From the sequence record PZ295659.1: a DNA stretch of 64,000 bases; one strand, written 5' to 3'. A program made the position numbers and the translations under genes. Below the pieces are notes generated by a model. That model did no database searches. It had not been told where the DNA came from and worked only from the letters and a program-made list of their open reading frames with translations. Positions within the stretch are counted from its first letter, which is position 1. The number at the start of each line of letters is the position of its first letter. Of this stretch, positions 24,167-25,867 are shown in pieces. The DNA is from a phage.

Positions 24167-24192
24167 CATTATACCATCAAAAAATGTAAAGC
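24167..24192 (-). promoter_or_regulatory. middle promoter (MotA box TGCTTTA + TATAAT) for rnlB
   Basis: Minus strand reads TGCTTTACATTTTTTGATGGTATAAT: MotA box with a 13-nt spacer to the -10 element. Confidence 0.5.
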
Positions 24193-24195
24193 ATA

Positions 24196-24447
24196 CTAGA
24201 ACTTGATTTCTATCCAGTGCCCATCACGCTGGTCGTGATTAATTTTGTACTGAAAGCCGTTATCACGGAACCACTGACCGATTTGCTCGGTGATAGTTAA
24301 ATCATTCTTTGACGGATAGTATGTAAATTGTGTCTGGCCTTTGTCAGCGGCTTTCTCTGCCATCACAGAGAAGTTAGTAATAAAATCTTTCAACAAATTG
24401 GCTTTAGTGGCCAGCGCCCTTTCTCTTAATTCCTGTGCAAAACTCAT
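24196..24447 (-). CDS. hypothetical protein (83 aa)
   Basis: ORF between hoc and rnlB; ATGA overlap with the upstream small ORF. Confidence 0.45.
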   Translation of the reverse strand: MSFAQELRERALATKANLLKDFITNFSVMAEKAADKGQTQFTYYPSKNDLTITEQIGQWFRDNGFQYKINHDQRDGHWIEIKF

Positions 24448-24638
24448 TTCTTCACCTTTTTGTTAATAAAACGTTTACGGTATACAACTTTTTCTTTTGC
24501 TTTAAACTTTGACCGAGCTGTCTCAGCTTTAGTCCATAATAATCCAACTTCTTTAGGTTGTAAACCGATTTTTTGAGCAATTTCTACGAATGAAAATCCC
24601 GCCTCATGTAATGTATAAACTTCAACTTCAGCTCTCAT
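24444..24638 (-). CDS. small HTH-like protein with basic C-terminal tail (64 aa from ATG)
   Basis: Segment YTLHEAGFSFVEIAQKIGLQPKEV resembles a sigma region 4 / LuxR-type helix-turn-helix; the track start at 24644 is a TTG, the first ATG is at 24638. Confidence 0.4.
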   Translation of the reverse strand: MRAEVEVYTLHEAGFSFVEIAQKIGLQPKEVGLLWTKAETARSKFKAKEKVVYRKRFINKKVKK

Positions 24639-24716
24639 AATCAATCCCGTATTATTTGGTTTGTGCCATTATACATCAATCTCAAGACGTGTTTGTATGC
24701 TTTAAAAACGAAGAAA

Positions 24717-24730
24717 GGGGCCGAAGCCCC
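24717..24730 (-). terminator. GGGGC-UUCG-GCCCC hairpin after hoc
   Basis: On the minus strand, a 5-bp GC stem with UUCG loop followed by UUUCUUCGUUUUU, just after the hoc stop. Confidence 0.6.
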
Positions 24731-24736
24731 TTACGA

Positions 24737-25867
24737 TTATGGATAGGTATAGATGATACCAGTTTCTAAAGCAGTTTTATGAATGATGTATCCATTACGT
24801 GATTCTTGAACATCAACTTCTGGATAGTCTTTCATCATCTTCTGAAGGGTGTAACGATGCAAGTAGTACTTACTATCTGGGTCGTCAGTTTTCCAGTCTT
24901 TACCTTCTTCAGCCATTTTTTGGATTTCATCCATAACCCACCAACCGCACCAGATATAAGCTGAAGTACGATGTGGAAGAGGATGAACATAAGGTAATTC
25001 ACCTTCTGGTTCCGGAGCAACTTTATCAGTTACCTGAACTTGACCTGTTGTTTTAACTGTTTTGCTATCATAGTCAGTTGCTGTAACGACAGCAGTAACT
25101 TCAATAGTTTGACTTCCAACAGATGAGGTATCAATAGTATATACGTTAGTTGACCCTTCTACAGGAGAAGAATCTTTCTTCCACGAGTAAGTAATTTGTG
25201 CTGCGTCAGGTGCGCCAGTAACATTAGCAGTAAATGTAGCCGAAGCATCTTGCTGAACGTTAATAGAAGGAGGAGTCAATGCAATCTGTGGATTCATTGT
25301 CTTCTTATTAACCGTCAATGATACTTCATTAGAAGTAACGCTCAGTGCATCATAATCTGTCGCTGTTACTTGAGCTACACACTTGATTTTTTTAACTCCA
25401 CTTGTAGTAGGAGTGTAATTGAATGTAGCACTAGTTGCTTCGCTCACAGGAGAACCATCTACATGCCATTGATACGTAGCAGACGCCCCGGCCGGTTGAG
25501 AAGCTAAGGCAGCAGTAAATTGAACTGGGGTTCCAATTACTCCAGCTGAAGGACTATCAGGAGTTACAGCTAAGGTAGTCGTCTGTGTCTTGTTTTGAAC
25601 TGTGATAGTTGTAGTAGCTTCTGCTGTTTCAGCATCAGAATCAGGAATAGTATTTGTTGCAACTACCTTAATAGTCTTTTGACCGGCAGGTCCTTTTAAT
25701 ACATAATCAAAAGTTGCTTCAGCTCCATCTTGTGGAACATTATCTACAGTCCAAGCATATGTAATAGGTCCATCTCCAGTTTGACCACTGGGTGTAGCAG
25801 TAAACTGCTTGGTTTCATCAATAACTCCTGTTGGTGTTTTAGGAGTTATATCAACTGTAAAAGCCAT
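24737..25867 (-). CDS. hoc: highly immunogenic outer capsid protein Hoc
   Basis: 376 aa, same as T4 Hoc; S/T-rich repeated Ig-like segments (TATDYD repeated twice). Confidence 0.85.
   Translation of the reverse strand: MAFTVDITPKTPTGVIDETKQFTATPSGQTGDGPITYAWTVDNVPQDGAEATFDYVLKGPAGQKTIKVVATNTIPDSDAETAEATTTITVQNKTQTTTLAVTPDSPSAGVIGTPVQFTAALASQPAGASATYQWHVDGSPVSEATSATFNYTPTTSGVKKIKCVAQVTATDYDALSVTSNEVSLTVNKKTMNPQIALTPPSINVQQDASATFTANVTGAPDAAQITYSWKKDSSPVEGSTNVYTIDTSSVGSQTIEVTAVVTATDYDSKTVKTTGQVQVTDKVAPEPEGELPYVHPLPHRTSAYIWCGWWVMDEIQKMAEEGKDWKTDDPDSKYYLHRYTLQKMMKDYPEVDVQESRNGYIIHKTALETGIIYTYP

Follow-up and report, generated by a model that had tools for sequence, protein, structure and literature searches.

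Phage sequence record PZ295659.1 raises the question whether a small protein of 64 amino acids, encoded at positions 24444-24638 on the minus strand, is a regulator of transcription and, if so, what it contacts. The window examined here is the whole stretch of 64,000 nucleotides (nt) from this record. An interpretation made from the letters of the window (the sequence-only reading) had described the product as a small early protein with a helix-turn-helix (HTH) like that of sigma region 4 or LuxR and with a lysine-rich tail, which could be a new transcription modulator or a DNA-binding regulator. The interval and the product were exact, and the strand, which had not been given, is minus: the open reading frame (ORF) runs from an ATG at 24638-24636 to a TGA at 24446-24444, the stop codon being counted in the interval, and its translation (7.5 kDa) is identical to the 64 amino acids given before. 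A Shine-Dalgarno-like GGGA is read from the sequence 6 nt 5' of the ATG (24645-24648, minus strand), and GAGA stands at the same place in T4. An in-frame TTG at 24644, two codons 5' of the ATG, is unlikely to be the start codon, since the T4 annotation uses the same ATG as the window gene.

The product matched the Pfam family DUF2774 (PF11242) along its full length (residues 1-64 on profile positions 1-63 of 63) with a score of 107.4 bits against a cut-off of 29.2 (E = 4e-31), and the PHROG family phrog_1566, whose function is annotated as unknown, with E = 3.9e-30. All signature residues of DUF2774 (E12, G14, F17, I20, A21 and V-Y-R-K-R) were found in the window protein. It was 65% identical over 63 residues to the 24.3 product of T4T, 65% identity was likewise found for the proteins annotated as 24.3 in T4T, RB32 and PEi20, and the order hoc-24.3-24.2-rnlB-24 was common to the window and T4T. 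On the strength of the DUF2774 and PHROG matches, the identity to T4T and the conserved gene order, the ORF is identified as the ortholog of T4 gene 24.3, of a family that had already been catalogued. Compared with T4 gp24.3, the window protein has the same length class, the same strand and the same place between hoc and 24.2/rnlB, with no substantive differences. As an entity the gene is not new, a protein 100% identical to its product being encoded by phage RPN187; as a small phage HTH protein, 24.3 is an ordinary representative of its kind and does not introduce a new type of system. Membership of DUF2774 explains no mechanism, the function of the family being unknown. T4 is the best-studied virulent phage, and roughly half of its genes, 24.3 included, are without a known function; literature searches on DUF2774, gp24.3 and P39492 turned up no functional study of gene 24.3.

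The family was gathered by an exhaustive HMMER search and a profile search, a word-indexed protein search with the single sequence having returned one cluster. The exhaustive search, covering 1.8 billion representatives, gave 33 proteins at E ≤ 0.001, most of them small phage proteins of the DUF2774 family, and the family profile retrieved 132 protein clusters, the named sources of which were all phages of Enterobacterales apart from one Pseudomonas phage. The phages of the four family loci for which taxonomy was obtained (T4T, PEi20, KPV15 and kaaroe) all belonged to the Straboviridae (4/4). At the nucleotide level, 1,071 phage records gave a tblastn match to 24.3, with in essence a single copy in each genome, and no paralog was detected within the window either by tblastn or by a search of all six frames with the family hidden Markov model. 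The 801-bp stretch around 24.3 was 97-98.6% identical to many Escherichia phages of the genus Tequatrovirus.

Given the single sequence, AlphaFold2 predicted helices at residues 2-12, 17-24 and 28-62 with a predicted local distance difference test score (pLDDT) of 76. Given an alignment of 100 family sequences, the mean pLDDT was 87.4, the helices comprised residues 3-12, 17-24 and 28-47 (pLDDT 89-95) and residues 48-64 formed an extended coil (pLDDT 66-72). The predicted protein consists of a three-helix HTH of the sigma region 4 type (residues 3-47; 24498-24632, minus strand) with a long third helix, followed by an extended basic tail (residues 48-64; 24447-24497, minus strand) that is delimited by the coil in the model, by column conservation and by charge. 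The HTH pattern recognized in the sequence-only reading was in this way borne out. The top structural matches of the model were sigma region 4 domains, namely FliA, region 4 of SigR, domain 4 of SigW, SigF, the sigma-like domain of PhyR, the Mycobacterium tuberculosis sigma domain 4 in 3HUG (with the anti-sigma factor RslA) and Escherichia coli sigma E region 4 on -35 DNA. LuxR/GerE-type domains (RcsB, TraR, NarL and GerE) ranked behind them. From the model we are confident that the 24.3 protein has the three-dimensional fold of region 4. DUF2774 thereby gains a confidently predicted sigma-4-type HTH fold, and an anonymous ORF becomes testable.

The likeness to sigma region 4 and LuxR was only partly reflected in sequence. 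No sigma model in Pfam (Sigma70_r4, PF04545; Sigma70_r4_2, PF08281) matched the window protein even at E ≤ 10, nor was there a match to the LuxR/GerE model (PF00196), and its marginal Pfam matches were to HTH_40 and HTH_38 only. Sub-threshold matches among 23 family members were to HTH_38 (5/23), Sigma70_r4_2 (4/23), HTH_7 (4/23) and GerE (2/23), the best E-values of any member being 0.023 for Sigma70_r4_2 and 0.0029 for GerE (PF00196), both below the gathering score. A search of PDB sequences with the single protein and two profiles gave sub-significant matches only and no relative with a solved structure; these matches were to designed repeat proteins and to the HTH domains of RpoE, an IS21-type transposase and VirB, which the family profile also matched weakly. 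The nearest sequences outside the family were long proteins composed of tandem HTH units of about 35 residues that matched residues 6-38 of 24.3. These units are called Sigma70_r4 by Pfam (E = 7e-57 for P0003, a value inflated by summing over the repeat units), so that the tandem-repeat proteins may link 24.3 to sigma region 4, the link being a transitive one. The claimed resemblance therefore stood as far as structural matches and the tandem Sigma70_r4 repeat proteins were concerned, whereas the sequence models remained below threshold and the positions corresponding to -35 reading, considered below, were not conserved.

Several differences from both kinds of domain are apparent. Relative to sigma region 4 (e.g. 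sigma E, 2H27), the 24.3 domain is free-standing, net acidic and below the Pfam thresholds, and sigma factors have no counterpart of its additional invariant basic tail. There is no sigma region 2 or 3, since the 64 amino acids comprise only the HTH and the tail and the neighbouring genes are 24.2 and hoc. LuxR/GerE-type domains (GerE, of 74 amino acids, and the C-terminal domains of RcsB, NarL and TraR) have four helices, the last of which serves dimerization, whereas the 24.3 model has three helices followed by coil.

The distribution of conserved positions in the 100-sequence alignment pointed to the tail. Conserved scaffold residues of the HTH were E12, G14, F17, D/E19, I20, A21, K/R22 and G25, and surface positions of helix 1 (H8, H11, E12 and G14) were also conserved. 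The strongest conservation was found in the segment (R/K)48-E49-(K/R)50-(V/I)51-V52-Y53-R54-K55-R56-L57, in which Y53, R54 and K55 were invariant in all 100 sequences (mean column identity 32%), R/K48, K/R50 and R56 were nearly invariant across the family, and the other signature residues were conserved at 90% or above. By this alignment the invariant element of the family is the C-terminal VVYRKR arm and not the recognition helix, and no earlier description of it was found. Residues 42-64 contain 9 K, 3 R and 1 E, giving a net charge of +11 and an isoelectric point of 11.3 (family mean charge +9.8). The description of the tail as lysine-rich was accordingly correct in composition and understated in substance, since no motif of the family is better conserved than the one in this tail.

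The codons for V52-Y53-R54-K55-R56, the best-conserved residues (24471-24485, minus strand), read GTA TAC CGT AAA CGT in the window and GTC TAT AGA AAA AGA in T4. Given that the invariant motif is kept through synonymous codon changes, selection appears to act on the protein. This bears on the notion that 24.3 is a chance ORF or a non-functional remnant, for which one could cite its length of only 64 amino acids and the neutral outcome of knock-down in T4 (see below). It is contradicted by the DUF2774 match (E = 4e-31), the existence of over 1,000 orthologs, the motif retained through synonymous changes, detection of the T4 protein and the confident fold, and we consider it refuted by conservation.

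Information on expression and dispensability was available for T4. In time-resolved T4 omics by Wolfram-Schauerte et al. (PMC9697503 supplement), 24.3, 24.2 and rnlB are classed as 'early-RNA_middle-Protein', and because of this class assignment T4 24.3 can be regarded as detected as a protein. In a genome-wide T4 CRISPRi-ART screen (PMC11879866), knock-down of 24.3 was scored 'Not Fit' (score -0.52, p = 0.86); as this knock-down had no fitness effect, T4 24.3 appears dispensable in laboratory E. coli. The attribute 'early' in the sequence-only reading accordingly finds support in the early RNA of the T4 ortholog, and this support reaches the window phage through T4 only.

The interpretation that we favour, with a probability of about one half, is that 24.3 is an accessory, small nucleic-acid-binding regulator expressed in the early to middle part of infection by T4-like phages of enterobacteria and related hosts. 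Its identity as the T4 24.3 ortholog, the early RNA and middle-class protein of that ortholog, the sequence link through the Sigma70_r4 repeat proteins and the neutral knock-down in T4 are in keeping with this. Nucleic-acid affinity of the tail is suggested by its net charge of +11 (family +9.8) and by the invariant Y53, R54 and K55. The near-neutral HTH module would serve as a scaffold and perhaps provide specificity or a protein contact, while the main contacts, to the DNA backbone or minor groove, would come from helix 3 at its basic end and from the Tyr-Arg-Lys-Arg arm, a mode of binding that would tolerate the glucosyl-hydroxymethylcytosine of T-even DNA. In this way gp24.3 might adjust how certain phage or host genes are transcribed and yet not be needed for growth in laboratory E. 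coli. A functional analogy, for which homology is not claimed, is offered by homeodomain and Hin-type HTH proteins, which in concept likewise combine a three-helix HTH with a short, extended arm rich in Arg and Lys. The homeodomain/Hin-type arm is N-terminal and enters the minor groove, whereas that of 24.3 is C-terminal.

A number of observations count against a DNA-binding regulator of this kind. The HTH part (residues 1-41) has a net charge of -2 (family mean -0.3). When 24.3 was aligned by hhalign with sigma E (sequence of E. coli K-12), residues 9-31 matched 'TLRELDGLSYEEIAAIMDCPVGTV' over 23 columns with a probability of 13%. The -35 contacts of sigma E, which we take to be R171, S172, F175, R176 and R178, fall by ungapped extension of this match on G32, L33, T36, K37 and E39 of 24.3. 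The family columns 32, 33, 36, 37 and 39 contain A/M, K/Q/L, V/A/L, K/D/E and mostly E, respectively, and are thus variable or acidic. Because of this, major-groove reading in the manner of a sigma factor is unlikely, and the HTH could instead serve to bind a protein; as modelled, 24.3 is a sigma-4 fold without the sigma-4 DNA-reading surface. Furthermore, no conserved operator-like repeat was seen in the 24.3 promoter region when this was inspected by eye only, and a tail kept invariant might just as well dock onto a conserved host protein or bind RNA as an arginine-rich motif.

If the HTH binds protein rather than DNA, 24.3 could be a mimic of sigma region 4: the HTH-like domain would take a place that sigma70 region 4 normally fills, for instance on the beta-flap tip of RNA polymerase, or soak up a protein that binds region 4 (AsiA, Rsd, an activator or an anti-sigma factor), while the basic arm holds DNA or RNA nearby. 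T4 would then have one more small factor for taking over RNA polymerase. This would agree with the finding that the top structural matches are sigma region 4 domains, several of which were solved with anti-sigma partners (FliA/FlgM, SigF, SigW/RsiW, SigD4/RsdA and PhyR/NepR). It would also agree with an HTH that is acidic to neutral, has variable residues at the putative DNA-reading positions and is conserved on the surface of helix 1 (H8, H11, E12 and G14), and with early expression, while host polymerase is being reprogrammed. AsiA, MotA and gp33 are small T4 proteins that act on sigma70 region 4 or on the beta-flap to re-program RNA polymerase, and AsiA and MotA share with 24.3 an early-to-middle expression. 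All four proteins are small and come from the same phage group, so that a link of 24.3 to sigma region 4 is conceivable; no homology or fold similarity of 24.3 to AsiA, MotA or gp33 was found. The neutral knock-down of T4 24.3 is unlike what would be expected for a core component of the take-over of RNA polymerase. Overall we regard mimicry of sigma region 4 as unlikely. Less probable still is the more specific proposal that the HTH docks on the beta-flap tip or captures a region-4 binder without reading DNA, that the YRKR arm clamps nucleic acid, and that gp24.3 is conditionally important in T-even RNA polymerase re-programming. Contact of gp24.3 with RNA polymerase would extend a textbook system, while a plain accessory DNA binder would add one more small phage regulator.

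The same tail could be read as an RNA-binding element. Its basic YRKR segment would then bind a structured RNA in the manner of the arginine-rich motifs of lambda N and HIV Tat, and the protein would influence how phage transcripts are translated, how stable they are or how they terminate, perhaps in conjunction with the neighbouring gene for RNA ligase 2. The extended, strongly basic tail with its invariant Tyr-Arg-Lys-Arg fits such a role, as does the position of 24.3 at the head of a small operon that contains rnlB in most genera. Krischvirus, however, keeps 24.3 without rnlB at the locus, the only conserved RNA structures seen nearby were ordinary terminators with a UUCG loop, and an HTH fold typically binds DNA or protein. 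A role as RNA-binding regulator therefore seems improbable to us.

A gene that is non-essential in the T4 screen and yet single-copy and retained in approximately 1,070 genomes, from many genera of Straboviridae, might also contribute to host range or counter-defence. The protein would then bind and neutralize, or act as a decoy for, a host factor that laboratory strains lack, and its loss would be neutral in K-12 or B and costly in wild hosts. That 24.3 is an early gene and that its operon neighbours vary, as in accessory regions, would be in keeping with this. The strong conservation of 24.3 differs, however, from the fast turnover usual for counter-defence genes, and no likeness to a known anti-defence protein was found in Pfam or PHROGs (PADLOC and anti-defence libraries were outside the search). 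We give such a function little credence, somewhat less than RNA binding, and retain the accessory nucleic-acid-binding regulator as the preferred interpretation.

The genes around 24.3 in the window are, in order, 24 (plus strand), rnlB, 24.2, 24.3, hoc and inh (all minus) and uvsW (plus), and gene 23 is also on the plus strand; these neighbours identify the window, by gene content, as a T4-like (Tequatrovirus) genome. In T4T, PEi20, KPV15 and kaaroe, 24.3 lies just past the hoc terminator within the block from hoc to gene 24, the genes downstream of it being variable, and its position is kept in the genera Kanagawavirus, Jiaodavirus and Krischvirus. The constant feature is that 24.3 heads a small leftward unit directly downstream of hoc, preceded in kaaroe by an ORF of 65 amino acids. 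The next gene in the window is the 24.2 ortholog (24196-24447, minus strand; 83 amino acids, 54% identity to T4 24.2), which belongs to phrog_2416, of unknown function, and for which no Pfam family match was found. Its ATG overlaps the stop codon of 24.3 (ATGA) in both the window and T4, and this overlap suggests translational coupling of the two genes. An obligate 24.3-24.2 pair was dismissed as a general rule, as an unrelated gene separates the two in KPV15, and kaaroe keeps 24.3 without 24.2 or rnlB at the locus. The 24.2 products of the window, T4 and PEi20 share a C-terminal motif, DQRDG-(D/H)-W-(I/L/V)-EI, which is weaker in KPV15 (loci compared: window 24196-24447, minus strand; L002 3203-3571; L003 3658-3915).

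The transcript of hoc ends at an intrinsic terminator consisting of a hairpin with a UUCG loop and a T-run (24715-24732, minus strand), and the arrangement of hoc terminator followed by 24.3 was also found in T4, PEi20, KPV15 and kaaroe. The promoter regions of 24.3 were compared between the window (24639-24745) and loci L002 (2903-2994), L003 (2906-2994) and L004 (2587-2797), and the promoter assignments for all genera are inferred from sequence. In the window, a candidate -10 element, TATAAT, lies within the conserved block GATGTATAATGGCAC (24668-24673, minus strand), and neither a good -35 hexamer nor a MotA box was present upstream of it. The -10-like block TATAATGGCAC is common to the window, T4 and Krischvirus kaaroe and is the only such signal ahead of 24.3 in T4 and the window; kaaroe has a consensus TTGACA-16 nt-TATAAT ahead of 24.3, and PEi20 and KPV15 have MotA-box-like sequences 12 nt 5' of the -10 element. 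The type of promoter before 24.3 varies by genus while the position of the gene stays constant.

A MotA-dependent middle promoter was rejected for the window gene, as no MotA box in the right orientation lies upstream. A perfect MotA box, TATGCTTTA, occurs at 24696-24704 in the hoc-24.3 intergenic region on the plus strand, opposite to 24.3, and is not followed by a -10 element; the sequence at this position in T4 is GTGCTTTC. A textbook T4 middle promoter is present at 24168-24195 on the minus strand, just past the stop codon of 24.2 and upstream of rnlB, with the MotA box TATGCTTTA at 24195-24187, a 13-nt spacer and TATAAT at 24173-24168.

Among the long proteins with tandem region-4-like units, P0003, P0015, P0016, P0020, P0026, P0031 and P0033 have between 4 and over 10 such units, each about 35-45 residues long, and the solved 'CAP REPEAT' protein 8VD6 contains the same type of unit. 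P0016, and P0020 judging by its sequence, end in HNH-associated repeats.

Some DUF2774 members carry the label 'DNA primase-helicase subunit', as seen for H77 (Klebsiella phage ValerieMcCarty04), P0052 (Yersinia phage vB_YenM_P8) and BFVD entry Q0MUT0 (Klebsiella phage KPP95). The sequence offers no support for this label, which was judged to be a propagated mis-annotation. P0035 (Klebsiella phage vB_Kpn_AM_K4, 167 amino acids, on a 288-kb contig) contains a tandem pair of DUF2774 copies, and since the two repeats are almost identical, they probably reflect an artefact of assembly or concatenation and not a genuine duplication.

The T4 reference copy of 24.3 (NC_000866.4, L005 316-486) encodes 56 amino acids and lacks a piece of 33 nt, equal to 11 codons of helix 3, which is found in 24.3 of T4T (L001 2501-2704) and of the window (24444-24638). 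All other family members seen are longer than this 56-amino-acid form. Given that two CTCGAG (XhoI) sites bound the missing piece, the gap seems to have arisen through loss of a small XhoI fragment from the old reference assembly, or else through a deletion that occurred in a laboratory strain. The UniProt-style name '6.6 kDa protein' traces to the short T4 reference form.
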